Both the position numbers and the translations under genes were made by a program. From Acutalibacteraceae bacterium (GTDB lineage: Bacteria; Bacillota; Clostridia; Oscillospirales; Acutalibacteraceae), in the NCBI GenBank assembly GCA_045634325.1, contig JAZRAA010000040.1, forward strand, positions 33,002-97,001: DNA of 64,000 nt, in the 5' to 3' direction. Shown piece by piece: positions 25,603 to 44,331 of the stretch; within the stretch, counting starts at the first letter, position 1; each line of letters opens with the position of its first letter. The notes below the pieces were generated by a model, which saw only the letters and a program-made list of their open reading frames with translations, was not told where the DNA came from and searched no databases.

Positions 25603-25620
25603 GAGGTGAATTTAAAAAAC

Positions 25621-27265: not shown

Positions 27266-27538
27266 ATGCCCGAAAAGAAAATTCCGCAACGGCGTTGTGT
27301 GGGTTGTAACGAGCATAAACCCAAACGTGATTTAATCCGTGTAGTGCGCACCGAAAACGATGGCTTCGCCATTGATTTGACCGGCAAGAAAAACGGGCGC
27401 GGCGCATATATTTGCAACAGCCTTGCCTGTCTGCAAGCTGCACACAAGAAACACGCGTTAGAGCGTTCTTTCTCCTGCAAGATTCCGGAAGAAATCTACG
27501 CCCGCTTAGAGGAGGAATTATTGCAAGGTGAACAGTAA
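27266..27538 (+). CDS. ylxR: YlxR/RnpM family (DUF448) RNA-binding protein
   Basis: 90 aa with the RRCVGC...GRGAY signature. It holds the canonical position between nusA and infB. Confidence 0.9.
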   Translation: MPEKKIPQRRCVGCNEHKPKRDLIRVVRTENDGFAIDLTGKKNGRGAYICNSLACLQAAHKKHALERSFSCKIPEEIYARLEEELLQGEQ

Positions 27539-27860
27539 ATTGCTGGGCACGCTCGGTATTTGCCGTCGCGCAGGTCATCTGATACTCGGTTTTGACGCCG
27601 TGTGCGATTTAATGAAACAGCGCCGTGCAAAATGCGTGTTAACCGCCGCCGACCTGTCCGAAAAAACAAAAAAAGAACTGCTGTTTGCAGGTAAAGAACA
27701 ACATACCTTGCTGTATGACCTGCCCTATGACAAAGCGACCATATCCATCGCTTTGGGTTTACAAAAACCGGTGGGCGTGATTGCCACCGATGATGAAGGC
27801 TTTGCGAAAGCCATCGCAAAACATATCCCTGCCGAAATAAAGGAGGACGATGCCCTATGA
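27528..27860 (+). CDS. L7Ae-family ribosomal-protein-like protein YlxQ
   Basis: 110 aa starting [20 protein letters not shown] start, and the stop overlaps the infB ATG (ATGA). Confidence 0.8.
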
Positions 27861-30292: not shown

Positions 30293-30657
30293 TGGGAAGT
30301 TATCGTTCCGACCGTACAAGTGAAGATATCATGCGTGAACTGACCGCCATTCTGCGAACCGTCAAGGATCCCAGAGTAGCGGGCAAGATGTTGAGCATCG
30401 TGCGGGTGGATGTCACACGCGATATGTCCTATGCCACTGTGTTTGTCAGCGCAATGGAAGGATTAGACGTGGCAAAAGCTGCCGTGAAAGGCCTTGTATC
30501 CGCCGCCGGTTATATGCGACGGGAATTAGGGCTTTCCCTGCGCTTGCGCCACACACCCGAACTGCGTTTTGTAGCCGATGATTCCATCGCTTACAGTGCG
30601 GGTATCGCCGCGACACTCAACCGCCTCCACAAGGAGGAAAGCGAAGATGAACAATAA
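30292..30657 (+). CDS. rbfA: ribosome-binding factor A
   Basis: 121 aa with SIVRVDVTRDMSYATVFVS...HTPELRF. TAATG overlap with infB. Confidence 0.93.
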   Translation: MGSYRSDRTSEDIMRELTAILRTVKDPRVAGKMLSIVRVDVTRDMSYATVFVSAMEGLDVAKAAVKGLVSAAGYMRRELGLSLRLRHTPELRFVADDSIAYSAGIAATLNRLHKEESEDEQ

Positions 30658-31615
30658 ACAAATCACACTTGAACAAACGGCAAAACTGTTGCTGCATGCA
30701 GATAATATATTGGTGCTTTGCCATCAATATCCCGACGGCGATACCATCGGTTCCGCCGCCGGTCTGTGTCTTGCTCTGCAACGGCTGGGAAAACGGGTGC
30801 GCATTGCCTGCAACGACCCTTTCCCGTCTAAATATGATTACATGACTGCACCCATCGCCTTGCAGGACTTTGCACCGGATTTCATCTGCGCCGTGGATGT
30901 CGCTGACAGCAAATTGCTAGGTGCCAACATGCAAGTATATGCGGATAAAATCGACCTTTGCATCGACCACCACGGCACCAATACCGGCTATGCGAAGCAG
31001 GTTTTGCTCAACGCCGAGGATGCGGCAACGACTATGCTCATTTTCAATTTGCTGAAATATTTGGGCGTACAACTTGACAATGAAATTGCCGCTTGCCTGT
31101 ATACCGGCATCGTGACCGATACCGGTTGCTTTAAATACAGCAACACCACTGCTTCCGCTCACCGCATTGCAGCCGACTGCATGGAAACAGGTATCCCCTA
31201 CGATATGATTAATCGCATCATGTTTGACACCAAATCCCGTGCACGTATCGAACTGGAACGCCGCGCTTTAGAAGGTATTTCGTTCTATTTCAACGACCGT
31301 CTTGCCATCATGGCAATCACCAACGAAATGATTGCGCAAAGCGGTGCTACTGAGGATGATTTGGAGGGATTGCCCCCCTTGGTGCGTCAAATCGAAGGCG
31401 TGTGGGTCGGTATCACCCTGCGCGAGCACGCAGACGGTGGCTTTAAAGTGAGCATGCGCACCGGTAAACACGCCAACGCCTCCAACCTGTGCAAACTGCT
31501 GGGTGGTGGAGGACATGCTGCTGCTGCGGGCTGCCGTATCGATTTGCCTTTGCAAGAAGCGACGGACAAGCTGATACACGTCGTCGGCGAAAATGTCCTG
31601 CGTATAAAGGAGTAA
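30647..31615 (+). CDS. nrnA: DHH-family bifunctional oligoribonuclease/pAp phosphatase NrnA
   Basis: DHH motifs HQYPDGDTIGS, DHHGTN and GGGHAAAAG. Start trimmed to ATG 30647 with AAGGAGGA at 30631-30638. Confidence 0.88.
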   Translation: MNNKQITLEQTAKLLLHADNILVLCHQYPDGDTIGSAAGLCLALQRLGKRVRIACNDPFPSKYDYMTAPIALQDFAPDFICAVDVADSKLLGANMQVYADKIDLCIDHHGTNTGYAKQVLLNAEDAATTMLIFNLLKYLGVQLDNEIAACLYTGIVTDTGCFKYSNTTASAHRIAADCMETGIPYDMINRIMFDTKSRARIELERRALEGISFYFNDRLAIMAITNEMIAQSGATEDDLEGLPPLVRQIEGVWVGITLREHADGGFKVSMRTGKHANASNLCKLLGGGGHAAAAGCRIDLPLQEATDKLIHVVGENVLRIKE

Positions 31616-31619
31616 CATA

Positions 31620-32498
31620 ATGGACGGTATTCTTTGCATTGACAAGCACATGGAGGTAACCTCCTTTGTTTGCTGTGCCATGGCACGCCGTATTTTAAAA
31701 GAGAAAAAAGTCGGACACGCCGGCACCCTCGACCCGATGGCGACCGGCGTGTTGCCTATTCTGTTAGGTAAAGCCACTCGTGCTCTGGATTTCTTGCCCT
31801 CACATGATAAACGCTATACTGCCACCATGCGATTTGGCTTTCATTCGGATACGCTGGATGTCTGGGGAAAGGTGCAACCAACCAACGCACCCCTTCCCAC
31901 ATTAACGCAAATAGAAGCGGTTTTACCCGCTTTTCGAGGCGATATTCTGCAAGTCCCTCCCATGACCTCCGCGCTCAAACAAAACGGTAAACGGCTGTAT
32001 GAATTGGCGCGCGAAGGCATCGAAGTAGAACGAAAACCCCGCCCAGTTACGATTTATGCGCTGGAGATTATTGATTTTCAACCGCAAAAGGGGGAACTGA
32101 CCATCGATTGCCGTTGTTCGAAAGGCACATACATTCGCTCTATCTGTGATGACATCGGCAAGGCACTGGGGTGCGGTGCGGTGATGACCGCTTTGCGACG
32201 CACCGAGGCGGCAGGATATACATTAGATGCATGCGTACCCATCACAGACGATACAGATGCCGATACCCTGCGTGCGCATATTTTACCGATAGAAACCGCC
32301 TTTTCTTCCTACCCCGCCGTCACCGTTTCCGCTGCGCAAGCGATACGGTTTCAAAACGGCGGTGCTCTCAGTTTGCAACGCCTTCACACGACCTTGCCCC
32401 CGCACACCCCTTTGCGTGTGAAGGCACCTGACGGTATGTTTTTGGGCTTGGGACAAGCAGATGATACAGATTTAAAAGTATTAAAGTTGTTTGTATAA
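31620..32498 (+). CDS. truB: tRNA pseudouridine(55) synthase TruB
   Basis: Catalytic block HAGTLDPMATGVLPI. 292 aa. Confidence 0.95.
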   Translation: MDGILCIDKHMEVTSFVCCAMARRILKEKKVGHAGTLDPMATGVLPILLGKATRALDFLPSHDKRYTATMRFGFHSDTLDVWGKVQPTNAPLPTLTQIEAVLPAFRGDILQVPPMTSALKQNGKRLYELAREGIEVERKPRPVTIYALEIIDFQPQKGELTIDCRCSKGTYIRSICDDIGKALGCGAVMTALRRTEAAGYTLDACVPITDDTDADTLRAHILPIETAFSSYPAVTVSAAQAIRFQNGGALSLQRLHTTLPPHTPLRVKAPDGMFLGLGQADDTDLKVLKLFV

Positions 32499-32507
32499 GG
32501 TGACACG

Positions 32508-34073
32508 ATGAACGTATACGCTGTACCGACACAACTGCATACCGTTCACGACGCTGACCGTATCATTGCGGTCGGCGTATTTGACGGTGTGCACATCGGG
32601 CACAGTGCCGTGTTGACCAAAGCGTTGCTGGAACATGACCTCACTCCCGCTGTTTTCACATTCAAACAAAGTGACAACCTCAAATCAGGCGGCAGTTTGC
32701 AAACCGATGAAGCACGCCGTAAAATATTAGAACGGCTGGGATTTGCAGATATATTCGAAGCGGATTTTACCGCGATTCAGAATATGACACCGCAAGAATT
32801 TGTGGATATGTTGCACTGTAACCTGCACGCCAAAGCCATCGTGTGCGGTTTTAACTTCCGTTTCGGCAAAGGCGGGGCGGGAGATATTCGATTATTAGAG
32901 CAACTGTGCGCGCAAGCGAATATCAAGGTTATGGTGCAGCCCGCTGTCACCTTAGACGGTGAAGCGGTCAGCTCCACCCGCATCAAACAAGCGTTAAAAA
33001 ACGGAGATACTGCACTCGTACTGCGTTTGCAAGGCAGACCGTTCACGGTGGAAGCCACTGTCAAAAGCGGACAAAGGCTGGGGCGCACCCTTGGCTCCCC
33101 CACCATCAACCAACCCATTGAGGACAATATCGCCTTACCGCGTTTGGGCGTGTATGCTGCGGTTGCGACAGTGAACGGCCGTATGCTTCCTGCTGTTACC
33201 AATATCGGTATACGACCTACTGTCGGCGGAACAAAGCCGCTGGCGGAAACATATATTATAGATTTTGAAGGCGATCTTTACGGAGAAAAAATACCCGTCG
33301 AGCTGGTAAAATTTCTCCGTTCCGAACAGAAATTTGAAACGATTGTGGCACTGCAACAGGCCATCCAAAAAGATATCGCAGACACCCGTGCACTATTTGC
33401 CCCCACCAATACCACTCGTGCGGTGATTTTCGATTTCGACAACACCTTGGCAGACAGGCAAATCGCGTTTCACGCCTTTTTACAAGATTGGCTACGCAAA
33501 CATTTTCCGCAAATGCCGCAAACGGAATTGTTGGCATATTGTGACCGCCTTTTAGATGTCGGGCACTACGGCTTTGTACCTTTTTCCGCTGTCTTTGACG
33601 CGGCAAAAGAAATGTTGCCGTGGGAAAACCCGCCCACGCTCGAAGAAATGTTTGCATACTTAAAAATTGCATATCCTTTGCACACCACCGTGTTCGACGA
33701 TGCTGTGAAAACCATTACGCAGTTGCGCCGACGCGGCTATATCGTCGGTATTCTCACCAACGGTAACGTGCGTGTACAAACCGCAAAACTGGATATGTCC
33801 GGTTTGCGCCCGCTGGTTGACTATATGTTAATCGGCGGTGAAGAAGATATCCAAAAACCTGAGCCCGAACTTTTTTACCGTGTTGCCAAACGTTTGGGGG
33901 TACACCCTGCTGATTGTGTGTTTGTGGGTGATAACCCTAAAAACGATATTGAAGGGGCTTTAAATGCGGGTATGCGCGCCGTGTTCAAAGATTTCGGGTA
34001 TCCAACCGTCACAGTAGATGACCCTCAGGTGCCACACATATCCGCTTTGCAAGAATTACTCAATCTGCTTTAA
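32508..34073 (+). CDS. ribF: fusion protein: bifunctional riboflavin kinase/FAD synthetase RibF + C-terminal HAD-family hydrolase
   Basis: Residues 1 to about 300 carry FAD synthetase GVFDGVHIGH and the riboflavin kinase block GRTLGSPTINQ...PTVGG. Residues from about 305 to 521 carry HAD motifs IFDFDNTLAD, ILTNG, K(P) and VGDNPKNDIEGA. Confidence 0.88.
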   Translation: MNVYAVPTQLHTVHDADRIIAVGVFDGVHIGHSAVLTKALLEHDLTPAVFTFKQSDNLKSGGSLQTDEARRKILERLGFADIFEADFTAIQNMTPQEFVDMLHCNLHAKAIVCGFNFRFGKGGAGDIRLLEQLCAQANIKVMVQPAVTLDGEAVSSTRIKQALKNGDTALVLRLQGRPFTVEATVKSGQRLGRTLGSPTINQPIEDNIALPRLGVYAAVATVNGRMLPAVTNIGIRPTVGGTKPLAETYIIDFEGDLYGEKIPVELVKFLRSEQKFETIVALQQAIQKDIADTRALFAPTNTTRAVIFDFDNTLADRQIAFHAFLQDWLRKHFPQMPQTELLAYCDRLLDVGHYGFVPFSAVFDAAKEMLPWENPPTLEEMFAYLKIAYPLHTTVFDDAVKTITQLRRRGYIVGILTNGNVRVQTAKLDMSGLRPLVDYMLIGGEEDIQKPEPELFYRVAKRLGVHPADCVFVGDNPKNDIEGALNAGMRAVFKDFGYPTVTVDDPQVPHISALQELLNLL

Positions 34074-34075
34074 GA

Positions 34076-34110
34076 AAAGGAGCAACACCTCTCGGTGTTG
34101 CTCCTTTTTT
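34076..34110. terminator. bidirectional rho-independent terminator (ends the nusA-ribF operon and the convergent rnf/flavinylation array)
   Basis: Perfect 11-bp stem GGAGCAACACC/GGTGTTGCTCC (34079-34104), with TTTTTT downstream on the plus strand and TTTTC on the minus strand. Confidence 0.85.
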
Positions 34111-34140
34111 CACTTTGTTTATATGTAAAGCGTTATAACT

Positions 34141-34782
34141 TTACATCAATATTCCCTGTAATTCCTCCGCACTCGACGCAAGGGCTTTTGCGCCGTGCAG
34201 TTCTTCCCTGGAGCCGTATCCATACAACACACCTACCGTCTCAATACCGCAAGCACGCGCACCGTCCACATCAAAACTGCGGTCGCCTACCATACACACT
34301 TGAGCGGGTGTTTGTATGTGTAATTGCTCCAACGCATAACGGATAACATCCGCTTTTTCCACCCGTGCACCACCCAGTTCACAGCCCGAAACAAAGGTGA
34401 AATATTGTTTTAAATCAAAGTGTTCTAATATGCGCTCGGCATACACGGCGGGTTTAGAAGTAGCAAGCACCAATTTGAAACCCGCTTGCTGTAAAGCGGA
34501 AAGCATTGTCGGTATACCCTCGTATACCGTGTTTTCAAACAACCCTTTATCGCCATAATACACACGATATAAGCGCAACATTTCATCTGCTTGCTCATCC
34601 GTAAGTTTAAATACAATCTTAAACTGCTCTTTAAGGGGCGGGCCGATGAACGAATACAGTTCTCGTCTATCCTCCACCACAATGCCGAAATGCTGCAAAG
34701 CATACATAATTGCATTCGTAATCCCCAAAGCAGGGTCAGTGAGCGTGCCGTCCAAATCAAAAAATATATACCGTTCCTGCAT
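34141..34782 (-). CDS. HAD-IA family hydrolase (phosphoglycolate phosphatase/PpaX-like)
   Basis: FFDLDGTLTD, LATSK and VGDRSFDVDGA motifs. The ATG directly abuts the upstream stop (TAAATG). Confidence 0.8.
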   Translation of the reverse strand: MQERYIFFDLDGTLTDPALGITNAIMYALQHFGIVVEDRRELYSFIGPPLKEQFKIVFKLTDEQADEMLRLYRVYYGDKGLFENTVYEGIPTMLSALQQAGFKLVLATSKPAVYAERILEHFDLKQYFTFVSGCELGGARVEKADVIRYALEQLHIQTPAQVCMVGDRSFDVDGARACGIETVGVLYGYGSREELHGAKALASSAEELQGILM

Positions 34783-35277
34783 TTAGCGCCCTCCCATTTG
34801 TTTTACGTGTGGTAACAGTATTTTGGTGACCACACCAATCACACAGCCGGTGACGGCACCGGCACATAACAGTGGCAAAACATAATACAACACACCGCCC
34901 ATACCCAACAACGCAAACGCCACAAGGAGCTGTCCGATATTGTGCAACACACCGCCCAACACGCTAACCCCAATCGGGCTAAAATGCTGATGACGGTAGC
35001 AGAGGCACATACCGATGAAACTCAGCACGGCACCCGCCAGACTATATAACATACCGGACACCGAGCCAAATATAAACGTCGCAAGCAACACACGCACCAA
35101 TGATACCGTTACGGCGAGCGGCGCGCCCATACTGTATAAGCACAATAGCACCACCAAATTTGCTAATCCCAACTTCATGCCGGGAATACCAAACGGCAAT
35201 GGTACCAACATTTCAATATAACTGAAAACAAACGCCAGTGCGACCAGCATGCCGCCCAAGGCAATACGTTTTGACAC
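34783..35277 (-). CDS. Gx transporter family membrane protein (Hpre_diP_synt_I-like)
   Basis: 164 aa with 5 predicted TM helices and a Gly-rich sequence, LGGMLVALAFVFSYIE...GMKLGLANL. GTG start with an AAGGAGGG SD 6 nt upstream. Confidence 0.6.
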   Translation of the reverse strand: MSKRIALGGMLVALAFVFSYIEMLVPLPFGIPGMKLGLANLVVLLCLYSMGAPLAVTVSLVRVLLATFIFGSVSGMLYSLAGAVLSFIGMCLCYRHQHFSPIGVSVLGGVLHNIGQLLVAFALLGMGGVLYYVLPLLCAGAVTGCVIGVVTKILLPHVKQMGGR

Positions 35278-35289
35278 TGTGCGCCCTCC

Positions 35290-35676
35290 TTACAAATCCA
35301 CGTCACTTTGCTGACCATTTTCAACGGTGATAACCAGTTGATGCGGCAGACATATGACACTCTGTCCACGGCGGCTGACTTTTCCTTGCCGCACACACAG
35401 TCCGTCAGGACAATCCGCATCGCTGACCCATACGGCACCATCACCTATATGCACCGTATTAAAACCACCATTTGCATCTTCTATATGCAGTTCTCGTTCT
35501 TCTAGGAGAGAAAACTCACCGTACACTTCACCGTATACCGTGATTTTAACCATTCCGTTATGTGCGGTAGGATATAAAAACAACTTGCCCAAAAGGAAAA
35601 CTACGCACAACGCCAATACGAGCGCCAGTACGATACAATCGCCTTTTTTCAGAAATCGTTTTCCTCTTTTGATCAT
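35290..35676 (-). CDS. NusG domain II (DUF1312)-containing membrane-anchored protein
   Basis: 128 aa with an N-terminal TM (IVLALVLALCVVFLLG), then VKITVYGEVYGEFSL...VWVSDADCPDGLCV...ICLPHQLVITV. ATG 35674-35676 with a GGAAG SD. Confidence 0.6.
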   Translation of the reverse strand: MIKRGKRFLKKGDCIVLALVLALCVVFLLGKLFLYPTAHNGMVKITVYGEVYGEFSLLEERELHIEDANGGFNTVHIGDGAVWVSDADCPDGLCVRQGKVSRRGQSVICLPHQLVITVENGQQSDVDL

Positions 35677-35711
35677 CCTACACACTTCCTAGTTATGTAT
35701 CAAATCCAGTA

Positions 35712-35739
35712 TAGGCCGTCGGATATATCCGACGGCCTA
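35712..35739 (-). other. perfect 28-nt palindrome / stem-loop between the FMN-binding gene and the NusG-II gene
   Basis: TAGGCCGTCGGATA|TATCCGACGGCCTA, with no U-tract on either strand. Confidence 0.7.
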
Positions 35740-35743
35740 ACTC

Positions 35744-36301
35744 TTACTCAGCTTGTATATACTTTTCCTGCACAAAAGCGGCAACATCATTCACCGCTTT
35801 AACCACCGCCTGAGAGGTCACTGTTGCACCCGCAATGCCATCCACATGACTGCCGCGGCCCGCTTCGCCTGTCAGGTACATTGGCAACACACGGTCTTTG
35901 AAACGTTCTTTAAAAGAAGATTCCTTAATTCTGGCACCATAATATTCGCTTTCCTTTTGAGACAGCACCTCGATGCCACGCAATACCGTTGTATCCGAAG
36001 ATACCGTAATCGCCAATTTAATCGGCACTTCGCTGTTATATCCCGTGACAGCGGTTTGCACACGATAAGCTATCACATTTCCCTGTGCATCCGTACAGGA
36101 TTCAACGACCGAAATCGCCGCTTGTTCATCTGTGAAAATAGCGGTTTTAGACACAATCTCCGGCAACCCTTCCACAGGTTGTTCAAAAGAATTAAAAACC
36201 GCTTGCCGTGCCGCCGTGGCACACCATAACAACGCTGCGGTCAACACCGCCATGCACACAATCGATACGCCTATGCGCACCACTTTGTTTTTTCGTTTCA
36301 T
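35744..36301 (-). CDS. membrane-anchored FMN-binding domain protein (RnfG/NqrC paralogue)
   Basis: 185 aa with an N-terminal TM and an FMN_bind-like core. It carries the flavinylation motif VDGIAGATVTS. ATGA overlap with the apbE stop. Confidence 0.8.
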   Translation of the reverse strand: MKRKNKVVRIGVSIVCMAVLTAALLWCATAARQAVFNSFEQPVEGLPEIVSKTAIFTDEQAAISVVESCTDAQGNVIAYRVQTAVTGYNSEVPIKLAITVSSDTTVLRGIEVLSQKESEYYGARIKESSFKERFKDRVLPMYLTGEAGRGSHVDGIAGATVTSQAVVKAVNDVAAFVQEKYIQAE

Positions 36302-37359
36302 ACGGTATCTCCTTGATGTAAAAATGCAGTAAATCCATCGCTATATACCAAATCGCCGGTATGTTCCACCCAAACCGCCTCATATCCTTCGACGGTTTTG
36401 AGAAGCGCCGCCCCCTCTTGCTGCGGCATCAAAAACAAGGCGGTTGAAAGTATATCCGCCATCCCTGAATCCGGTCCTATCACCGAAACAGAGGCAAAAT
36501 ACTGTGCTGGTTGTAACGAATCAGGGTCAATCAGATGATGATAACGCACACCATCTACCTCAAAATACCGCTGATAATCGCCGCTGGTCACCACCGCACA
36601 ATTTTGTACATCCACTGTCAGCAGATGCTCTTGCGGATTTTTGGGGTTCTCGATGCCGATAATAAACGGCTTGCCCTGTTTGTCCCCCACGGCGACCACG
36701 TTACCACCCACACTGATTAAAGCGCTATGCACGCCAAGGTCCACAGCGTATTGGGCGACCCATTGCGCCGCCAATCCTTTTGCAAAGGCGCCCACATCCA
36801 ACGACATTGCGGTATCGGTCAATTGCACGGTGCCCGCCGCAGTATCCAGCACAACATTCGTTATGTCCGTGTGCTGATTAGCGGCTGACAGTGCCGCGTT
36901 CGACGGCGGGAGCGGTTTTTCTGCGTTACGTGCTTGATGCCACAAACACAAAACACTGCCCATCGCCATATTGACCTTGCCGTCGGTAAGGGTATATGCC
37001 TGCTTGCCGTATTGGAGCATACGCATCAAGTCTGTTGAAACCGTCACGGCTTCCCCCACGGCATCGTTGACCGCTTTTACATTCTGCAAACCTTGTATGG
37101 TATCGTAAATACTAAACTCATTGTGTAAAGCAGACAGTCGGGCGTGCAACTGTGCCGCCCAATCATCTGCCACCTGCTGTGACGTTGCATACAACTGTAA
37201 AACGGTCACCGTATCAAACACATCCAAATAGGTGTACTGGAACCGTTTTACAGTATCGGCACAACCGACAAAGGAAAAGAGCATCCCGCAGATGCATAAA
37301 AGCACAAGCAATCGTTTCAATGCCCTTTTCCTCCCCGTTTCAATCTTACACAGCAGCAT
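36298..37359 (-). CDS. apbE: FAD:protein FMN transferase ApbE (lipoprotein)
   Basis: Lipobox LFSFVGC, with ApbE blocks DVGAFAKGLAA, TSGDYQRYF and HHLIDP. 353 aa. Confidence 0.88.
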   Translation of the reverse strand: MLLCKIETGRKRALKRLLVLLCICGMLFSFVGCADTVKRFQYTYLDVFDTVTVLQLYATSQQVADDWAAQLHARLSALHNEFSIYDTIQGLQNVKAVNDAVGEAVTVSTDLMRMLQYGKQAYTLTDGKVNMAMGSVLCLWHQARNAEKPLPPSNAALSAANQHTDITNVVLDTAAGTVQLTDTAMSLDVGAFAKGLAAQWVAQYAVDLGVHSALISVGGNVVAVGDKQGKPFIIGIENPKNPQEHLLTVDVQNCAVVTSGDYQRYFEVDGVRYHHLIDPDSLQPAQYFASVSVIGPDSGMADILSTALFLMPQQEGAALLKTVEGYEAVWVEHTGDLVYSDGFTAFLHQGDTV

Positions 37360-38308
37360 TCATTGCTTTTTTCACGTTGATCAACATGGCGGGAACCATG
37401 ATGGTGCAGCCGGCAGCCGCATCGGTGATTTTAGAATCGGTAAGTTCCATACCGGCAATATCACCTTCAGTTTTGCCCGCCAAATATTTTTGCAGGTTAT
37501 CTACTTGCTCAAACCATTCCAAACCAATGCCGGAAGCAACTTTCATACCATAGTCATTTCCGAGCTGACGTTTGGTTTTCACTTCGCCGCTTTCTGCTGC
37601 AAATTTACCGTCGGTCACGGTGAATGCCTTTTGCAGTTCGTCAGCACGGCAGGCAGTTACTTTACCGTCTGCGCCAACAGCCACGCCGGTGAATTCAACG
37701 TCATAGCGAGGAGCGGTGTCTTCGCTGGAAGCATAACGAGAAGCGGTGACAGCCAGGCCCAATTTATCGGTAGCTTTTGCGCCGTCTTCTTTTGCATCGG
37801 CAGCAGCCTTGGATACCACTTTGATGAAATCGGTCACTACAATGGTGCAACCTGCGCTCAAGTCGGTGTCGACACCTTTGCCGTCTTGGGTTTGGATGCT
37901 CGAAACTTCGTTAGCTGTTTTGCCAACTACATATTTGCAGAATGCATCCACCTGCTCAAACCATTCTTGCTTTGCACCGCCATAGGTTTTCATGTTGTAA
38001 TCATTACCAAGTTCATATTTGGTTCTGAAATCCGCAACATCTTTCAAAACGTCGTTTTCTATAGCGGGTTTCAACTGCACTTCGTCCAAACGGCAGGAAA
38101 TGATTTTGCCGTCAGCATCGGTGAGTACCACTGCTGCGAGAGCGGTCAAGGAAGCTTCTTGCTCGCCTGCTTCGGCATTGGCGATGACCGCCATGCCCAT
38201 TTTGGTTTTTGCGTCATCATCATTTTGTTTGCCGCCGGCTTCCTTGGCGCAACCGACAAACGTCACCAACAAACATACTGCTAACAAACATGCCAATACT
38301 TTTTTCAT
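37346..38308 (-). CDS. internally duplicated lipoprotein with two FMN-binding-like modules (variant AGCT motif)
   Basis: Lipobox LLVTFVGC. There are two modules of about 140 aa, each with K-x-LGNDY-x-MK, EWFEQVD and GKT, and each ending D-x-x-AGCTI(V/M)V. This tail aligns residue-for-residue with the D-x-x-(S/A)GATV(T) flavinylation site of RnfG and of the neighbouring FMN-binding protein. AGAGGTG SD, 17 nt after the rnfB stop. Confidence 0.6.
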   Translation of the reverse strand: MKKVLACLLAVCLLVTFVGCAKEAGGKQNDDDAKTKMGMAVIANAEAGEQEASLTALAAVVLTDADGKIISCRLDEVQLKPAIENDVLKDVADFRTKYELGNDYNMKTYGGAKQEWFEQVDAFCKYVVGKTANEVSSIQTQDGKGVDTDLSAGCTIVVTDFIKVVSKAAADAKEDGAKATDKLGLAVTASRYASSEDTAPRYDVEFTGVAVGADGKVTACRADELQKAFTVTDGKFAAESGEVKTKRQLGNDYGMKVASGIGLEWFEQVDNLQKYLAGKTEGDIAGMELTDSKITDAAAGCTIMVPAMLINVKKAMNAAV

Positions 38309-38325
38309 TTTTCAACACCTCTTAC

Positions 38326-39120
38326 TTAAAATATAATTTTTACAGGACATTTCTCGGCACAAGTGCCGCAATCGATACATTTTTCGTGCGAGATAACCGC
38401 CACGCCGTCATCCAGCGTAATGGCTTGGGTAGGACAGTTTTTCGCACAGATGCCGCAAGCGATACAACCGATATCGCACACAGCTTTGACATCTTTGCCT
38501 TTATCGTGGGACGAACACCGCACCGTGTAAGGACGTCCCGCCGGTTGTAAACTAATCAAGTTTTTCGGGCAAGCTTTCACACATTTGCCACACGCAATAC
38601 ATGCTTCTTCATCCACCACGGCGATGCCATCTACCATATGGATGCATTGTTGCGGACAAACTTTGGCGCAAGAGCCAAATCCGAGACAACCAAACGCACA
38701 TTGCTTTTGTCCACCACCGGGAGCCAACGCCGCCGCTTCACAGGTTTCAATACCGTCGTATACATATTTTGCGCCGGCACGCTCACAACTGCCCGCACAA
38801 TGTACCATTGCCGCCAAACGCGTCGCTTCCTCAGCTTGTTTGCCCATGATTTCCCCAATTGCTTTGGCGCCTGCGGCACCGGCAACGGGGCATAGATGAA
38901 CGGGTGCATTATCCTCGGCTATCGCCTTAGCATACGCATCACAACCGACATAGCCGCAACCGCCACAGTTAGAACCGGACAATATATTGCGTACCGCCGT
39001 TTGTTTTTCATTTTCGGCTACCGCTAATAGTTTACCCGCGACACCGAGAATGATACCAAGCAGCAGACCGACACCTGCGACAACGCCTGCTGCAATCAAA
39101 ATCCCCAAATAATTTTCCAT
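38326..39120 (-). CDS. rnfB: Rnf complex subunit B (ferredoxin-binding, polyferredoxin)
   Basis: N-terminal TM, a CGGCGYVGC cluster and several CxxCxxCxxxCP motifs. 264 aa. Confidence 0.92.
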   Translation of the reverse strand: MENYLGILIAAGVVAGVGLLLGIILGVAGKLLAVAENEKQTAVRNILSGSNCGGCGYVGCDAYAKAIAEDNAPVHLCPVAGAAGAKAIGEIMGKQAEEATRLAAMVHCAGSCERAGAKYVYDGIETCEAAALAPGGGQKQCAFGCLGFGSCAKVCPQQCIHMVDGIAVVDEEACIACGKCVKACPKNLISLQPAGRPYTVRCSSHDKGKDVKAVCDIGCIACGICAKNCPTQAITLDDGVAVISHEKCIDCGTCAEKCPVKIIF

Positions 39121-39132
39121 TGTCTTCCTCCT

Positions 39133-39711
39133 TTACAACAAGGACTTAAAGCCGAAAAATGCCAACGACATCAATCCCGCCGTCATCAACACAATCGGTG
39201 TCCCTTTAAAGGATTCCGGTATATCGTTATCTGCGATTTTTTCACGCACACCCGCCATGATGACAATAGCAACGGTAAAACCAACCGCCGTACCGAAACC
39301 GCTCACCACGCTGGTGATAAACGAATATTCATTCTGCACATTATTGAGTGCCGCACCCAACACCGCACAGTTAGTGGTGATGAGCGGCAAATATACGCCC
39401 AGGGCACGATATAACCCTACGCTGTATTTTTTGAGCACCATTTCTACCAACTGCACCAGAGCGGCGATGACTAAAATAAACACAATCGTTTGCAGATAGC
39501 CAAGACCGAGCGGTTGCAAAATACCGGTATAAATTAACGACGTAAGTGCAGAAGAAACCGTGATAACACAGATAACCGCCAATCCCATACCGGAAGCGGT
39601 TTTCACCTGACCGGAAACGCCGACGAACGGGCACAAACCTAAAAACTGGCTAAGTACCACGTTATTAATCAGCGCAGTGGTGAGCAAAACAAGAAACAAA
39701 TTATCACTCAT
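39133..39711 (-). CDS. rnfA: Rnf complex subunit A
   Basis: 192 aa polytopic protein starting LINNVVLSQFLGLCPF. Start trimmed to ATG 39709-39711 (ATGA overlap with the rnfE stop). Confidence 0.92.
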   Translation of the reverse strand: MSDNLFLVLLTTALINNVVLSQFLGLCPFVGVSGQVKTASGMGLAVICVITVSSALTSLIYTGILQPLGLGYLQTIVFILVIAALVQLVEMVLKKYSVGLYRALGVYLPLITTNCAVLGAALNNVQNEYSFITSVVSGFGTAVGFTVAIVIMAGVREKIADNDIPESFKGTPIVLMTAGLMSLAFFGFKSLL

Positions 39712-40382
39712 TGTGCATCCCCCTCTCCGCTTTCGCACGCCGTACAACCACCGCAATGGCCGTTACAGGTCTTTGCGCCTTTACGGTTAGTGGCAGAGGG
39801 CGCTTTGAGTTTGTTCTGCAAAGCCGTGAGAATTGCCAACACAAAGAACGCACCCGGCGCCAACACCAAAATCGGAATGGTATACGTTTCGGGAAGCACG
39901 CGCAACCCAAACACCGTACCCGCACCCAGCAATTCACGCACAGCGCCCAAAATGGTGAGTGCTACCGTAAAGCCCAGACCCATACCGATACCGTCAAACA
40001 AAGCAGGCATGGGTTTGTTTTTAGAAGCATACGATTCCGCGCGGCCGAGAATAATACAGTTGACCACAATGAGCGGAATATAAATGCCCAACGTCTCATA
40101 CAGGCCGGTCACAAATGCCTGCATCAGCAATTGTACCATGGTAACAAACGAAGCTACCACCACAATGTAAGCGGGCATTCGCACCTTATCAGGAATGACA
40201 TTGCGCAAAATGGAAATCAGTAAATTGGAAAGCATCAACACAACCGTGGTGGAAAGACCCATACCGAGTCCGTTAAAAGCGGCGGTGGTGACCGCCAAGG
40301 TAGGACACATACCCAACATCAACATAAAGGTGGGGTTTTCTTTGATAATGCCGTTATATAACCGTTCTAAACACGTTTTCAT
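39708..40382 (-). CDS. rnfE: Rnf complex subunit E (with Cys-rich C-terminal tail)
   Basis: NPTFMLMLGMCPTLAVT and PLIVVNCIILGRAE motifs. Start trimmed to ATG 40380-40382 (ATGA overlap with the rnfG stop). The tail sequence is CNGHCGGCTAC. Confidence 0.9.
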   Translation of the reverse strand: MKTCLERLYNGIIKENPTFMLMLGMCPTLAVTTAAFNGLGMGLSTTVVLMLSNLLISILRNVIPDKVRMPAYIVVVASFVTMVQLLMQAFVTGLYETLGIYIPLIVVNCIILGRAESYASKNKPMPALFDGIGMGLGFTVALTILGAVRELLGAGTVFGLRVLPETYTIPILVLAPGAFFVLAILTALQNKLKAPSATNRKGAKTCNGHCGGCTACESGEGDAQ

Positions 40383-40996
40383 GCATCCAACCCCCCCCCG
40401 ACCATATATTCCGAAACGAACCAAACGCCCGCATTCACCGCATTGGTCACCCCTTGAGAAGTGACGGTAGCACCACTGATGCTGTCGATTTGTGTTTCAT
40501 TCGCACCGCCCTTGACCACCGAAAGGGTGGTAGCGGATTTGCCGGCAAATTGTCCATAAAACGACTCGTCGGTACATTTAGAACCCAGTCCCGCAGTTTC
40601 GGTGTGGGACAAAATGGAAATACCGGTGAGCTTACCGTCTGTTCCAATACCCAACGTCAAATCAATAGGACCGCCGTAGCCGTTACCGCTGACGGTTAAT
40701 ACATACCCGATTTTCTCGCCGTTTGCATCGGTAGCATACAAGGCATCCGCCACCTTGCAGCCTGCAAAACCGGCTTTTGCCAACGCTTCATCTGCGGTTG
40801 TTAACGCCTTGTTGACGGTCTCATCTTCCGCGAAAGATGCCGCTTGTGAGAAAATACCGCGATACGCCTTTGCACGTGCTTCAAGAGCCGCTCTCGCAAT
40901 TGGCTCTTTAGTCACCGCATATACCGCCGCCAACAAGACACCTGCTACCAACGTAATCATAAACAAGGCAAATGCATCTTTTGCTATTTTCTTCAT
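40379..40996 (-). CDS. rnfG: Rnf complex subunit G (FMN-binding)
   Basis: N-terminal TM, SHTETAGLGSK and the flavinylation site DSISGATVTS. 205 aa. Confidence 0.92.
   Translation of the reverse strand: MKKIAKDAFALFMITLVAGVLLAAVYAVTKEPIARAALEARAKAYRGIFSQAASFAEDETVNKALTTADEALAKAGFAGCKVADALYATDANGEKIGYVLTVSGNGYGGPIDLTLGIGTDGKLTGISILSHTETAGLGSKCTDESFYGQFAGKSATTLSVVKGGANETQIDSISGATVTSQGVTNAVNAGVWFVSEYMVGGGLDA
40391..40399 (-). repeat. G9 homopolymer (C9 on plus strand) in the last codons of rnfG, 9 nt upstream of the rnfE ATG
   Basis: Plus strand reads ccccccccc at 40391-40399, coding the GGG of ...YMVGGGLDA*. Confidence 0.95.
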
Positions 40997-41946
40997 GCTT
41001 TTGCCTCCTTTTTCACGCCGAAAGCGCGCGGTAGTGTCACCTTTTCAATGAGCGGCACCAAAATGTTGCCCAGCACGATTGCATAGGAGACACCCTCAGC
41101 CGCCGAACCGACTAATCGGAACAACGCGGTCAGCACGCCAATCAAAATGGCATACAACCATTGACCGCCACGCGTGATGGGGCTGGTAGAATAATCGGTT
41201 GCCATAAAGAACGCACCGAGCATCAAACCGCCGCTGCACAATTGCGCCGCCAAATACGATAACGTGGGCAAGCCACTGCCGTTCAGCAAGGAAATCAACG
41301 TGACAGATACCGCAAAACTTCCCAAATATACCAACGGAATACGCGGACTAATCACATGACGCACCAACATATACGCCGCACCAAGCAAGATTGCCACGGT
41401 GGACACCTCGCCGATACAACCCGCACGTGTGCCAAACACCAGTGACAGCATATCCACCGTTTCACCCGCCTTCATAGCAGCAAGCGGGGTGGCTCCTGTG
41501 ACACCGTCCAAGCCCGCAGGATAGGTGGTCATATAGCCACCAAAAGAAATCAGCATGAAACAACGTGCGGCTAATGCGGGGTTAATAAAGTTTTGTCCGA
41601 TGCCACCAAACAGTTGCTTGACAGCAATAATTGCAAACACACTGCCCAAGACAGCAATCCAAATCGGAATACCGACAGGCAAATTATACGCCAGCAACAA
41701 GCCGGTAACCAGCGCACTGCAATCCCCGATAGTCACCGGGAGTTTTAACAGTTTTTCATATACAAACTCCGAAAGCATGCAAGTGAGCACGCAAACGCCA
41801 ATTACCAGCAACGCGCGCCAGCCAAAATTCCACACACCGAACACACCTGCCGGCAACAGTGCAATGGCGACGTCCGCCATGATTTCACCTGTGTTGGTGT
41901 GCGCATGGATATGCGGCGAAAAAGAAATGCGTTTTAAAGTATTCAT
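40993..41946 (-). CDS. rnfD: Rnf complex subunit D
   Basis: 317 aa polytopic protein with the flavinylation site GVTGATPLAA. Confidence 0.92.
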   Translation of the reverse strand: MNTLKRISFSPHIHAHTNTGEIMADVAIALLPAGVFGVWNFGWRALLVIGVCVLTCMLSEFVYEKLLKLPVTIGDCSALVTGLLLAYNLPVGIPIWIAVLGSVFAIIAVKQLFGGIGQNFINPALAARCFMLISFGGYMTTYPAGLDGVTGATPLAAMKAGETVDMLSLVFGTRAGCIGEVSTVAILLGAAYMLVRHVISPRIPLVYLGSFAVSVTLISLLNGSGLPTLSYLAAQLCSGGLMLGAFFMATDYSTSPITRGGQWLYAILIGVLTALFRLVGSAAEGVSYAIVLGNILVPLIEKVTLPRAFGVKKEAKA

Positions 41947-43283
41947 TTTTTTGCCGCCTCCCTTGTTTGTTTATTAGCAGTGGAAATCGCCGTCTTGGCT
42001 TGCACAAAACTTTGCGTCAAATAAATGTGTGCGGGGCACACATACGAACAACTACCGCAGGAAACACATTCCATGCCGTTCAAATTCTTGAATGCATCCA
42101 TATCGCCTTTTCGCACGGCTTTCACCATTAACTGCGGCACCAAATTTGCGGGACACACACGCACACAGCGTCCACAGTGGATACAATTGGTGGTTTTCAA
42201 ATCCGCCGTTTGATTGTTTGTAAATGCCAGCAGTGCAGAAGTAGTTTTCTGCACCGGCACATCAGCGCTCATCAGCGCCGTACCCATCATCGGACCACCC
42301 GCAATGAGTTGTTGCGGTTCCGTCGCAAAACCACCCGCAAGCTCTACAACCTCTTGCAAAGAAATGCCAATGGGCACTTCATAGTTGCCGGGATTGCAAT
42401 AGGCGTTGCCCGACAAGGTAACGATGCGGGTGAGCAACGGCGTGTTTTCTACTACGGCACGATACAGTGCAATCACCGTTGCCACGTTGTGCACAATGCA
42501 GCCTGCCTCGTAAGGCAACATACGGGAATGTACTTTCTTGCCGGTCAACGCATAAATCAGTGAGCGCTCACCGCCTTGCGGATATTTGGTTTTCAGTGCG
42601 CCCACAGAAATTCCCGCATGTTCATCTGCTTTATGAGAAAGCAGACGAATCGCCTCCGGTTTATTATCTTCAATGCCAATAATTGCTTTGGCATTCGGGA
42701 ACATTTGAAGCAAAATACGAATACCGCCAAACAAAGCATCACTTTGTTCCAGCATCAAACGGTAATCCGATGTGAGATACGGCTCGCATTCCGCACCGTT
42801 GATGATGATATGCGTAATGGCGTTATCCTCACGAGGAGTAAGTTTTACATCAGCAGGGAAACCTGCGCCGCCCAAGCCGACAATGCCCGCCGCACGCGCA
42901 ATCTCGCGGATTTGACCGTTATCCAAATCATGAAAATCATCGTGCGGCGTTCCCCACTCACAAGCGGTATACTGCCCGTCATTATCCACCACGATGGACA
43001 GCACACGATTACCCGAAACAGTCAGCCGTTTTTCTATCGCTTTGACGGTACCCGACACGGCTGCACAAATACCCGCAGATAAGCCGTCGGCAGGCATGGC
43101 GATCTGCTGTCCGACCAGCACCATATCACCTTTTTTTACCGTCGGCACCGCAGGCTTACCGATATGCTGCGACAACGGATATACCGCTTCTCCGACAGGG
43201 CGCAACTGCTGTATCGGCAACGAGGCTGTCAACGCCTTACCATCGTACATATGCACGCCACCGCGAAATGTGTTTTTCAACAT
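41943..43283 (-). CDS. rnfC: Rnf complex subunit C (NADH-binding, 2x[4Fe-4S])
   Basis: GLGGAGFP and two CxxCxxCxxxCP motifs (CIHCGRCVRVCP, CVSCGSCSYVCP). Start trimmed to ATG 43281-43283 with an AAGGAGAG SD. Confidence 0.92.
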   Translation of the reverse strand: MLKNTFRGGVHMYDGKALTASLPIQQLRPVGEAVYPLSQHIGKPAVPTVKKGDMVLVGQQIAMPADGLSAGICAAVSGTVKAIEKRLTVSGNRVLSIVVDNDGQYTACEWGTPHDDFHDLDNGQIREIARAAGIVGLGGAGFPADVKLTPREDNAITHIIINGAECEPYLTSDYRLMLEQSDALFGGIRILLQMFPNAKAIIGIEDNKPEAIRLLSHKADEHAGISVGALKTKYPQGGERSLIYALTGKKVHSRMLPYEAGCIVHNVATVIALYRAVVENTPLLTRIVTLSGNAYCNPGNYEVPIGISLQEVVELAGGFATEPQQLIAGGPMMGTALMSADVPVQKTTSALLAFTNNQTADLKTTNCIHCGRCVRVCPANLVPQLMVKAVRKGDMDAFKNLNGMECVSCGSCSYVCPAHIYLTQSFVQAKTAISTANKQTREAAKK

Positions 43284-43373
43284 AAACCAACTCTCCTTCT
43301 TTCTGCTAAATATTTTTTGCAAAAAGATAACAATTATCAAAATGAACATAGCATTCGTAAATTATACATCACT

Positions 43374-43402
43374 ATTATACCATATATATATACTTTTTGC
43401 AA
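43374..43402 (-). promoter_or_regulatory. sigma-A promoter for rnfCDGEAB (TTGCAA-N17-TGgTATAAT)
   Basis: Minus strand has TTGCAA (43397-43402), a 17-nt spacer and an extended -10 with TATAAT (43374-43379). Confidence 0.6.
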
Positions 43403-43410
43403 TGTATTTT

Positions 43411-43453
43411 AAAAGACAAAAACACCACACGGCAAAAATTTGCCGTGTGGTGT
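43411..43453 (-). terminator. rho-independent terminator after fba
   Basis: 15-bp perfect stem ACACCACACGGCAAA/TTTGCCGTGTGGTGT (43422-43453) followed on the minus strand by TTTTGTCTTTT. Confidence 0.85.
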
Positions 43454-43467
43454 GTATGCACGTATGT

Positions 43468-44331
43468 TTACGCTTTGTTGACACTGCCGAACAGTTCCAT
43501 TTTTTCTTTGACGGTCGCTTTGATGGCTTCTACACCGGGAGCGAGCAATTTTCTGGGGTCAAAGCCTTTACCCTGCAAATCTTTGCCGGCTTCCACATAT
43601 TCGCGGGTAGCAGCCGCAAAAGCGAGCTGGCATTCGGTGTTAACGTTGATTTTGGAAACGCCCAAGTCAATCGCCTTTTTAATCATGTCAGCAGGGATAC
43701 CGGTGCCACCGTGCAAAACGAGCGGCATAGCGCCGGTTTTCTCCTGTACAGCCGCCAGCGTTTCGAAGCTGAGGCCTGCCCAGTTTTCAGGATATTTGCC
43801 ATGGATGTTGCCGATACCGGCAGCCAACATGGTCACACCCAAATCAGCAATTGCTTTGCACTCGTCGGGGTCAGCGCATTCGCCGTTACCCACAACGCCG
43901 TCTTCTTCGCCGCCGATAGCGCCGACTTCTGCTTCCAGAGAAAGACCTTTCTCTTCACAGATTTTCACCAGTTCAGTGGTCTTTTGAATGTTTTCATCAA
44001 TCGGATAATGAGAGCCGTCAAACATAACCGAAGAGAAGCCTGCCTCGATGCAAGCCATAGCGCCTTCATAGCTGCCGTGGTCAAGGTGCAACGCAACCGG
44101 CACGGTGATGTTGAGATTCTTGAGCATGCCTTCGACCATGCCCACAACCGTGGAATAACCGCACATATATTTACCTGCGCCCTCGGATACACCGAGGATG
44201 ACAGGAGAATTCAGTTCCTGTGCGGTCAAAAGAATGGCTTTGGTCCATTCCAGATTGTTAATGTTGAACTGACCGACAGCATAGTGGCCGGCCTTTGCTT
44301 TGGTAAGCATTTCTTTTGCGGATACTAACAT
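43468..44331 (-). CDS. fba: class II fructose-1,6-bisphosphate aldolase
   Basis: 287 aa with AVGQFNINNLE, VALHLDHGS and GGEEDG motifs. Start trimmed to ATG 44329-44331 with a GGAGGA SD. Confidence 0.94.
   Translation of the reverse strand: MLVSAKEMLTKAKAGHYAVGQFNINNLEWTKAILLTAQELNSPVILGVSEGAGKYMCGYSTVVGMVEGMLKNLNITVPVALHLDHGSYEGAMACIEAGFSSVMFDGSHYPIDENIQKTTELVKICEEKGLSLEAEVGAIGGEEDGVVGNGECADPDECKAIADLGVTMLAAGIGNIHGKYPENWAGLSFETLAAVQEKTGAMPLVLHGGTGIPADMIKKAIDLGVSKINVNTECQLAFAAATREYVEAGKDLQGKGFDPRKLLAPGVEAIKATVKEKMELFGSVNKA

Follow-up and report, generated by a model that had tools for sequence, protein, structure and literature searches.

An Rnf gene cluster of an Acutalibacteraceae bacterium with a predicted flavinylation kit and two candidate outward flavin carriers

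The window considered here, a stretch of 64,000 nucleotides (nt) from an Acutalibacteraceae bacterium (assembly GCA_045634325.1, contig JAZRAA010000040.1, positions 33,002 to 97,001), carries the Rnf (ferredoxin:NAD+ oxidoreductase) operon of an Acutalibacteraceae-like gut Clostridium. At its 3' end this cluster is extended by what the predicted proteins identify as a complete kit for extracytoplasmic covalent flavinylation, that is, the attachment of flavin mononucleotide (FMN), and by two extra predicted flavin carriers, a two-domain lipoprotein and a membrane-anchored paralogue of RnfG. A flavin relay that is fed by Rnf and leads outward via the lipoprotein and the RnfG paralogue is considered the best explanation of the locus, with a confidence slightly above even. 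In Listeria and lactic acid bacteria, where flavin-based extracellular electron transfer is understood, a special NADH dehydrogenase and a quinone are required for it. The locus is a variant of two known ideas, the export of electrons by a PplA-type flavoprotein and an Rnf complex with an added outward branch. Most of the combination, Rnf together with apbE and eetB, is already published, while the two-domain lipoprotein is the less described component, as far as the available portions of the respective literature extend.

Gene content and layout of the cluster

Twelve closely spaced open reading frames (ORFs) follow each other on the minus strand between 43402 and 34073 in the order rnfCDGEAB, duplicated lipoprotein, apbE, RnfG-like FMN_bind, NusG_II, Hpre_diP_synt_I and HAD. 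All six Rnf subunits with their signature domains (Pfam) are thereby present in one cluster in the order CDGEAB.

41943-43283, minus strand: rnfC, 446 amino acids, with RnfC_N, Complex1_51K, SLBB and Fer4 domains (Pfam)
40993-41946, minus strand: rnfD (PF03116, 3.7e-108)
40379-40996, minus strand: rnfG, 205 amino acids with one FMN_bind domain (PF04205, 4e-20)
39708-40382, minus strand: rnfE (PF02508, 1.5e-66)
39133-39711, minus strand: rnfA, 192 amino acids, a length as in relatives (PF02508, 1.7e-60)
38326-39120, minus strand: rnfB, with FeS (PF04060) and several Fer4 domains
37346-38308, minus strand: two-domain lipoprotein, 320 amino acids, lipobox FVGC with Cys20, no Pfam match
36298-37320, minus strand: apbE, fmnB-type FAD:protein FMN transferase (PF02424, 8e-67); longest ORF from ATG 37359, 353 amino acids
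35744-36301, minus strand: RnfG-like membrane-anchored FMN_bind protein, 185 amino acids (PF04205, 7e-13)
35290-35676, minus strand: eetA homologue (NusG_II; PF07009, 3.2e-28) with a single N-terminal transmembrane helix
34783-35277, minus strand: eetB homologue (Hpre_diP_synt_I or Gx-transporter type; PF07456, 7.9e-38), 164 amino acids
34141-34782, minus strand: HAD-IA phosphatase, PGP/PpaX-like, 213 amino acids (HAD_2, 1.1e-30)

An earlier reading of the DNA letters, in the following the sequence-only reading, had described the same twelve genes on one strand in this order, which is borne out by the ORF list and Pfam. Equally, most of the junctions that it gave recur in the ORF coordinates, namely the 17-nt gap between rnfB and the lipoprotein gene, with the Shine-Dalgarno (SD) sequence AGAGGTG read in the DNA, the 4-nt overlap (ATGA) between apbE and the FMN_bind gene, the gap of 12 nt between the NusG_II and the Gx gene and that of 0 nt between the Gx and the HAD gene. 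The 14-nt overlap claimed for the lipoprotein gene and apbE, on the other hand, is probably a 25-nt gap, with apbE most likely starting at TTG 37320 behind the SD sequence GGGGAGGAA, as judged from the conservation of both SD and TTG in the relative locus L007. With respect to other gene starts, the longest rnfC ORF extends over 41943-43349, but ATG 43283 with the SD AAGGAG 8 nt before it is preferred and most likely represents the start rather than 43349. The rnfE start at ATG 40382 has been picked by reading, the longest ORF beginning at TTG 40424. The longest ORF of the NusG_II gene (35290-35685) has 131 amino acids; its start is probably ATG 35676, which sits behind AGGAAG.

A lipoprotein with two divergent FMN_bind-like domains

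The lipoprotein encoded after rnfB is, on the evidence of profile comparisons, composed of two divergent FMN_bind-like domains. Its duplication, recognised in the sequence-only reading, has been substantiated, with the internal repeat reaching a local alignment score of 221 as compared with 33 +/- 5 for shuffles, and a lipobox with Cys20 is present. When the six proteins encoded downstream of rnfB were compared with Pfam hidden Markov models, as that reading had proposed, five matched the families ApbE, FMN_bind, NusG_II, Hpre_diP_synt_I and HAD_2, whereas the lipoprotein did not match FMN_bind; it had no Pfam match even at E <= 1 and no credible match in NCBIfam. A lipo_LytA match (0.0049) was ignored, being far below the cut-off.

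The relationship with FMN_bind proteins is instead suggested by the family as a whole. The family profile matches the structure 2KZX (PDB), a protein of 131 residues with a canonical DAISGAT site, at 4e-8, and the family motif D-L-x-A-G-C-T aligns onto this site with the Thr residues matched. Pfam FMN_bind is reached by 4 of 24 diverse family members with a best value of 1.2e-7, and hhalign of the family against RnfG-type domains extends over the whole domain (E 8e-5, probability 61%) and places the Thr on the flavinylated Thr. AlphaFold2 (AF2) gave a two-domain model of the whole lipoprotein with a pLDDT (the predicted score of the local distance difference test) of 91 and a predicted template modelling score (pTM) of 0.86, and a model of domain 2 alone with a pLDDT of 94. 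The top matches proposed by Foldseek, MHC-like and IscU-like, were not used, their template modelling (TM) scores being 0.1-0.44.

The family is large. A search of 5.8 billion clustered proteins retrieved 415 relatives of the lipoprotein, nearly all of which are unnamed or hypothetical and only one of which carries a precomputed FMN_bind match, and the family profile obtained 2,193 matches at E <= 0.001 and 885 at <= 1e-30 among 1.84 billion representatives; an exact-sequence look-up of the window lipoprotein returned no record. In versions of 640-991 amino acids the two-domain unit is repeated two or three times, and these 4 to 6-domain proteins look like electron wires. Multi-copy members such as P0121, P0122 and P0123 extend to 983-991 amino acids with up to six candidate sites; in P0122 every site reads ASCS, with Ser in place of Thr.

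In Listeria, the lipoprotein PplA is flavinylated on two threonines, T143 and T265 (PMC8906456). The window lipoprotein is described as PplA-like in role and not as a member of the PplA family, because it agrees with PplA in architecture and genomic slot but has neither the Pfam FMN_bind match nor the canonical motif.

Genomic context of the lipoprotein across species

A pattern scan with one genome per species located at least 566 loci with lipoprotein relatives, the best 80 of which were analysed; these and additional loci fetched for individual homologues were searched by tblastn with the twelve window proteins, and the context counts take only loci with enough flanking sequence. Among the best 80 species loci, 54 are Rnf-linked, 14 are linked to Ndh2/polyprenyl synthase/UbiA and 12 show neither context or are too short, while Rnf and Ndh2 occur together in none of the 80. 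The most constant neighbour is apbE, which lies at most 700 bp downstream of the lipoprotein gene in 64 of 72 loci; rnfB is found immediately upstream in 29 of 71 loci and up to 1.6 kilobases (kb) upstream in 46 of 67, and eetB occurs within the locus in 33 of 51. The view that an outward flavoprotein set is attached to Rnf rather than to an Ndh2/quinone branch, put forward in the sequence-only reading, is thus upheld by the 54 Rnf-linked loci. The conservation of gene order that it proposed to look for was likewise encountered, since the order recurs in dozens of species-level genomes.

The Rnf-linked loci come in two layouts, rnfCDGEAB-lipoprotein-apbE-FMN_bind(-eetA-eetB), to which the window belongs, and rnfCDGEAB-eetA-eetB-lipoprotein-apbE, and in one order or the other the genes have remained linked in dozens of species, at a protein identity of 35-45%. 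Cultured relatives with an Rnf-linked lipoprotein-apbE-FMN_bind arrangement are Eubacterium coprostanoligenes ATCC 51222, Ihubacter sp. rT4E-8 and Senimuribacter DSM 106208. The closest relatives of the window locus are found in metagenome-assembled genomes of Acutalibacteraceae with a lipoprotein identity of 70-80%, and several lipoprotein relatives derive from human and animal gut samples. Most Rnf-linked relatives possess an RnfG of 360-410 amino acids, often with two canonical sites. In general, outward FMN domains are usually added in these relatives, either fused in an enlarged RnfG or as a separate RnfG-like gene; the window lineage combines a plain, single-site RnfG of 205 amino acids with a separate RnfG-like gene, of which L007 has two.

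The alternative context resembles the Listeria system. In loci L086 and L087, genes for a Pyr_redox_2 protein (675-678 amino acids), polyprenyl_synt and UbiA occur with the lipoprotein and ApbE, and NusG_II and Hpre_diP_synt_I precede the lipoprotein in L086 and follow ApbE in L087. In these Listeria-type gene sets the lipoprotein holds the position of PplA, and as no PF04205 gene is found among the called genes of the two loci, the lipoprotein family fills the sole candidate-substrate slot. The analogy with PplA and FmnB drawn in the sequence-only reading gains from the same lipoprotein family standing between eetAB and apbE in ndh2/polyprenyl synthase/UbiA loci. In the window, tblastn with the L086 and L087 queries found no ndh2, polyprenyl synthase or UbiA at E <= 0.01. 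A neighbour-joining tree of the lipoprotein resolves three clades that are uniform in context, two of them being linked to Rnf and the third to Ndh2. In locus L079 (12047-13474, plus strand) a DsbD_TM-Redoxin fusion instead of Rnf or Ndh2 stands behind the lipoprotein-apbE pair, and would add a third type of partner for electron input at the membrane.

Candidate attachment sites

Each lipoprotein domain displays a candidate attachment site, DLSAGCT with Thr155 (codon 37846-37844) and DAAAGCT with Thr302 (codon 37405-37403). Compared with the ApbE motif D-x-x-[S/T]-G-A-[S/T], Asp, Gly and Thr are kept, and the positions -3 and -1 are occupied by Ala and Cys. In 120 homologues, Thr is present at the attachment position in 118 sequences for domain 1 and in all 120 for domain 2, it is preceded by Cys in 108 and otherwise by Val or Ile, and Asp at -6 and a small residue at -2 are largely retained; the canonical G-A-T occurs in 0 of 120. 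A few distant representatives of the family carry SGAT or AGAT, which ties the variant site to the classical one. In a model substrate, the exchange of the Ala before the target Thr to Val about halved flavinylation and replacement of the Thr abolished it (PMC12052999), so that a co-evolved transferase could plausibly act on G-C-T or S-V-T. The residue before Thr is Cys in 100 of 100 motif instances of Rnf-linked proteins, mostly as A-G-C-T, and Ndh2-linked proteins show [A/S]-S-V-T in 25 of 26 motif instances. The family comprises probable ApbE substrates with a non-canonical attachment site. An iron-sulfur or metal site made up of conserved Cys was dismissed, the strand Cys not being conserved and the motif Cys being Val in a whole clade.

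Such a departure from the canonical motif might also reflect the loss of covalent attachment, in which case the lipoprotein would be a non-covalent extracytoplasmic receptor for flavins or flavin adenine dinucleotide (FAD) that passes FAD from EetB to ApbE or scavenges flavins. It is conceivable in so far as an origin of ApbE-flavinylated proteins from non-covalent flavoproteins has been proposed (PMC11334425) and the reverse step might occur; the lack of G-A-T in the first 120 homologues and the tight partnership with apbE (the 64 of 72 loci), tighter than with any electron-input system, point in the same direction. A non-covalent binder would, however, have no need for a near-invariant Thr in both domains, the ApbE motif has also largely preserved its Asp at -6 and its small residue at -2, and the family occupies the PplA slot of loci of the extracellular electron transfer type that contain no other substrate gene. 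A receptor function is consequently regarded as improbable.

Flavin transferase, predicted FAD export and the RnfG-like protein

The window ApbE shows the full-length PF02424 domain over residues 49-330 and a lipobox FVGC, which makes it a lipoprotein itself; its match to the NCBIfam E. coli-type equivalog falls below the cut-off. It is most likely, by prediction from the domain, a FAD-dependent transferase of FMN onto Thr/Ser. Canonical ApbE sites are present in RnfD (DGVTGAT, Thr153, codon 41490-41488) and in RnfG (DSISGAT, Thr177, codon 40468-40466).

The RnfG-like protein of 185 amino acids combines an N-terminal transmembrane helix with an FMN_bind domain and the site DGIAGAT (Thr160, codon 35824-35822), the Thr site being invariant in 6 aligned sequences. 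With 33% identity to the window RnfG, it reaches the NCBIfam rnfG models with 6e-21 and 4e-17, and because both values are under the cut-offs it is taken as a paralogue and not as the RnfG subunit. L007, the lipoprotein of which is 70% identical to that of the window, holds a second membrane-anchored FMN_bind gene (12541-13173, plus strand, 210 amino acids, site DTLTGAT) between the RnfG-like gene and eetA. In two further relatives, L001 (12269-12835, Eubacterium coprostanoligenes-like) and L003 (12122-12715, Emergencia-like), the RnfG-like protein has kept the Thr and lost the Gly of the ApbE motif, the sites reading AKST and ANAT.

The NusG_II and Gx proteins, considered uncharacterised partners in the sequence-only reading, are by their domains homologues of EetA (PF07009, NusG_II, so labelled in Data Set S1 of PMC9973259) and EetB (PF07456), for which a role in FAD export has been published (PMC9973259). 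According to this work, Listeria EetB binds FAD, is needed for the flavinylation of PplA by the ApbE homologue FmnB and is read as the substrate-binding (S) component of a FAD exporter of the energy-coupling factor (ECF) type; eetB is found beside eetA in 3,328 genomes and beside apbE in 2,169, and its occurrence with Rnf in 572 Clostridia genomes is interpreted as supply or export of FAD to ApbE (PMC9973259). The gene combination, which had been thought undescribed, is consequently in print with respect to eetB-apbE-Rnf, and a second Rnf electron path had been proposed in 2021 (PMC8238504).

The window EetB aligns with PF07456 profile positions 1-146 of 147 and shows weak matches to models of ECF S-components; eetA lies 12 nt upstream of eetB, and apbE is within the same cluster. 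Binding and export of FAD by this protein is predicted by analogy, the experimental demonstration being that for Listeria EetB only. A solitary ECF S-component requires an energising module. The rnf cluster has no dedicated FmnA-like ECF-T gene; about 15 kb off, a general ECF energising module with two ABC_tran proteins and CbiQ is encoded on the minus strand of the same window (50075-52709), and this ecfA-ecfA'-ecfT module is likely the motor for the solitary EetB S-component.

51735-52709, minus strand: ecfA (ABC_tran)
50884-51738, minus strand: ecfA' (ABC_tran)
50075-50890, minus strand: ecfT/CbiQ (CbiQ)
49291-50061, minus strand: truA, after ecfT

All NCBIfam matches of the HAD protein are under the cut-offs. 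Of the relatives, only L005 and L007 have a HAD gene after eetB (1 of 53 species loci, with L005 in addition), and in these two as in the window the HAD gene shows translational coupling to eetB. It is a recent addition of this lineage and probably no core part.

As RnfG and RnfD need ApbE, apbE and EetAB beside rnf alone do not imply extracellular electron transfer, and the genes after rnfB might constitute a maturation cassette only, which builds a working Rnf from which no electrons leave. The lipoprotein and the RnfG paralogue would then serve in assembly, flavin delivery or stabilisation, or be additional subunits of Rnf. The canonical sites of RnfG and RnfD are in line with this possibility, as is the absence of an acceptor or reductase gene from the cluster; the association of eetB with Rnf has been interpreted as FAD supply (PMC9973259), and in Vibrio cholerae the maturation genes apbE and nqrM at the 3' end of the nqr operon are co-transcribed with it (PMC12174285). 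However, the lipoprotein-apbE pair equally occurs in ndh2/UbiA or DsbD-redoxin loci, the ndh2/UbiA loci having no rnf within 10 kb, so the lipoprotein is not Rnf-specific. Moreover, a redox carrier accounts better than a chaperone for the Thr conserved where flavinylation would occur and for the members with 4 to 6 domains. A function restricted to maturation is therefore assessed as unlikely, although as the main alternative it retains some weight.

Transcription signals and flanking genes

Three signals frame or divide the cluster.

43374-43402, minus strand: promoter of the Sigma-70 type before rnfC, TTGCAA-17-TATAAT with extended TG, 10/12 consensus match
35714-35737, minus strand: intercistronic hairpin GGCCGTCGGA-tata-TCCGACGGCC, a perfect 10-bp GC-rich stem without U-tract
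34073-34110, both strands: bidirectional intrinsic terminator, 17-bp stem with T runs on both sides

Both outer signals agree with the sequence-only reading. A consensus scan ranks 43402-43374, which comes after the terminator (43453-43422) of the upstream fba gene, as the top minus-strand site within 33800-43800, and no site at the 3' end resembles a terminator more strongly than the 34073-34110 stem, which the cluster has in common with the convergent truB-ribF operon. The single transcript of twelve genes, on the other hand, is not assertable from the sequence, a strong hairpin standing between genes 9 and 10. This hairpin starts six nt past the FMN_bind stop, between the FMN_bind gene and eetA, and has a folding energy of -25.2 kcal/mol (z = -4.97), with 0 of 200 shuffles equally stable. 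The close relative L006 retains it, one base pair having changed in a compensatory manner; L005 has no such hairpin at the junction (19-nt gap), and in L007 the second FMN_bind gene stands in its place. As it lacks a U-tract it is not a canonical terminator; it may act as a partial terminator and attenuate part of the transcript, or as an element that stabilises part of it.

This junction is also where the cluster might fall into separate transcripts, rnfCDGEAB-lipoprotein-apbE-FMN_bind and eetA-eetB-HAD, which would be neighbours by accident. Besides the hairpin, a promoter-like site at 35703-35675 (9/12 match) and the order of eetAB relative to lipoprotein-apbE, which varies between clades, could speak for such a mere adjacency. 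But the hairpin has no U-tract, an internal promoter at 35703-35675 was judged unlikely as its -10 element overlaps the eetA start codon, and the genes are together, in either order, across dozens of species. Owing to this conserved synteny, accidental neighbourhood is excluded for practical purposes and is rated as very improbable.

A scan of the whole window with Rfam (covering, for example, the FMN riboswitch) found no family. RibF (riboflavin kinase/FAD synthetase; 32508-34073, plus strand, 521 amino acids), with a fused C-terminal HAD-IA phosphatase domain, is encoded convergently with the HAD end of the flavinylation module and with the terminator in common, so that the FAD-making enzyme stands tail-to-tail with the FAD-using module; the same neighbour is found in L005 and L007. 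Two long plus-strand ORFs, 37232-38284 (350 amino acids) and 42994-44328 (444 amino acids), are antisense to the lipoprotein gene and to rnfC/fba and are treated as mechanical and non-coding. The GC skew is near zero at window positions 24001-34000 and about -0.12 to -0.18 elsewhere; this segment matches a run of genes on the plus strand, truB and ribF among them, whereas the remainder of the window is minus-strand, and the skew therefore reflects the coding strand instead of a foreign island.

A proposed outward flavin relay and its standing

In the favoured explanation, the products of the presumably co-transcribed genes would act in sequence. FAD would be exported by EetB with the aid of EetA and with energy from the general EcfA/A'/T module, and used by the lipoprotein ApbE to transfer FMN onto Thr153 of RnfD and Thr177 of RnfG, steps that follow established knowledge of these families. 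ApbE may also modify Thr160 of the RnfG-like protein and Thr155 and Thr302 of the lipoprotein, the counterpart of Listeria PplA, and the two proteins would make up a short relay of flavins at the membrane's outer face. This relay would draw electrons from the mobile flavins of RnfG and RnfD and hand them to soluble flavins or other outside acceptors; in structural models the flavin domain of RnfG swings between the iron-sulfur cluster of RnfA/E and RnfD (PMC12174285). Flavin-based extracellular electron transfer would thereby take a form that is fed from ferredoxin/NADH and needs no quinone. For the flavinylation of the two extra proteins and for the relay, including direction and partners of the electron flow, we draw on homology, the conservation of sites and the PplA slot.

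Several observations weigh against this explanation. ApbE and EetAB are fully accounted for by the needs of RnfG and RnfD, and neither the ORF list nor Pfam indicates that the cluster contains a gene for a terminal reductase or one related to an acceptor. The window lipoprotein has no match in Pfam or NCBIfam, a canonical [S/T]GA[S/T] site is missing in both of its domains, and since Foldseek with the full AF2 model and with domain 2 retrieved nothing from the PDB at E <= 0.001, so that the fold has no structural confirmation, the fold assignment rests on sequence profiles only. Equally, about one third of the lipoprotein loci have no eetB nearby, the RnfG-like gene follows apbE in only 17 of 61 loci, and the association of motif and context is given little weight because three clades represent few independent events. 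The outward flavoprotein set inferred in the sequence-only reading is partly supported, the PplA slot and the Rnf linkage speaking for it and the lack of a Pfam FMN_bind domain and of the canonical motif in the lipoprotein against it.

A wider proposition can be put forward only tentatively and is thought somewhat less likely to hold than to fail. It states that many quinone-poor gut Clostridia (Acutalibacteraceae, Oscillospiraceae, the Eubacterium coprostanoligenes group and Anaerovoracaceae) might perform quinone-independent export from Rnf through RnfG-type domains to a di-flavin lipoprotein, which would represent a new class of ApbE substrates. Its ApbE site would have been changed to G-C-T in the two Rnf clades, the sister clade linked to Ndh2/demethylmenaquinone showing S-V-T.

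If the lipoprotein is indeed flavinylated and reduced by Rnf, a concrete quinone-free route for ferredoxin- or NADH-driven outward electron flow would be at hand, and the oxidation of ferredoxin or NADH by Rnf could be directly discharged to outside acceptors. The class of hitherto unannotated ApbE substrates would comprise about 2,200 representatives. A large family that is invisible to Pfam and NCBIfam is flagged as probable ApbE substrates, and surveys based on FMN_bind or SGAT would undercount flavinylated proteins. If, on the other hand, the downstream genes serve maturation only, the locus would be an ordinary, already described Rnf-ApbE-EetAB cluster.

Comparison with known systems

The 3' position of the cofactor-maturation genes has a parallel in the Vibrio cholerae nqrABCDEF-apbE-nqrM operon, in which such genes equally follow a homologous redox pump and are co-transcribed with it (PMC12174285); unlike the window, this operon has neither a FAD exporter nor additional substrates for flavinylation. 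In Methanosarcina acetivorans, an Rnf operon includes an outward redox protein, the multihaem cytochrome MmcA, that passes electrons outside (PMC12174285). This conduit differs in being haem-based and archaeal, with proteins unrelated to those of the window.

The lipoprotein family also recalls the FMN-bind2 subtype, which has been described from AlphaFold models (Huang et al., 2024; PMC11334425). Both have domains of some 145-160 residues, the number of which is even (in the window family 2, 4 or 6), and for both a rigid pseudo-symmetric two-domain unit is predicted (pTM 0.86 for the window protein), with poor detection by Pfam. The likeness to FMN-bind2 (example NTW96865.1) is drawn from this published description, the available part of which gives no site sequence.

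The window locus is an instance of the Rnf-apbE-eetB clusters of Clostridia (Rivera-Lugo et al., 2023; PMC9973259). In the available parts of that paper no discussion of the lipoprotein or of the RnfG-like extra gene was found, and a lipoprotein without a Pfam domain would go unlabelled there. For related clusters, a multi-flavinylated RnfG has been proposed to provide a second electron path of Rnf to extracytosolic acceptors (Meheust et al., 2021; PMC8238504). Extra outward flavin domains embody the same idea, and most Rnf-linked relatives of the window have such an enlarged RnfG, whereas in the window itself RnfG is plain and single-site, with the extra sites residing on a separate RnfG paralogue and on the lipoprotein.

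Another close counterpart is the Listeria monocytogenes locus (ndh2, dmkA, dmkB, eetA, eetB, pplA, fmnA, fmnB), where, as in the window, an ApbE-type lipoprotein is encoded beside a two-site flavin lipoprotein, and EetA (NusG_II) and EetB (PF07456) are common to both. The window has rnfCDGEAB instead of ndh2, dmkA and dmkB, no dedicated FmnA-type ECF-T gene in the cluster where Listeria has fmnA, and an extra RnfG-like protein. The two sites are 147 residues apart in the window lipoprotein compared with 122 in PplA, and with A-G-C-T sites and no Pfam FMN_bind match in the former the likeness is one of architecture and gene slot. Yet relatives of the window lipoprotein occur in exactly the Listeria gene set.

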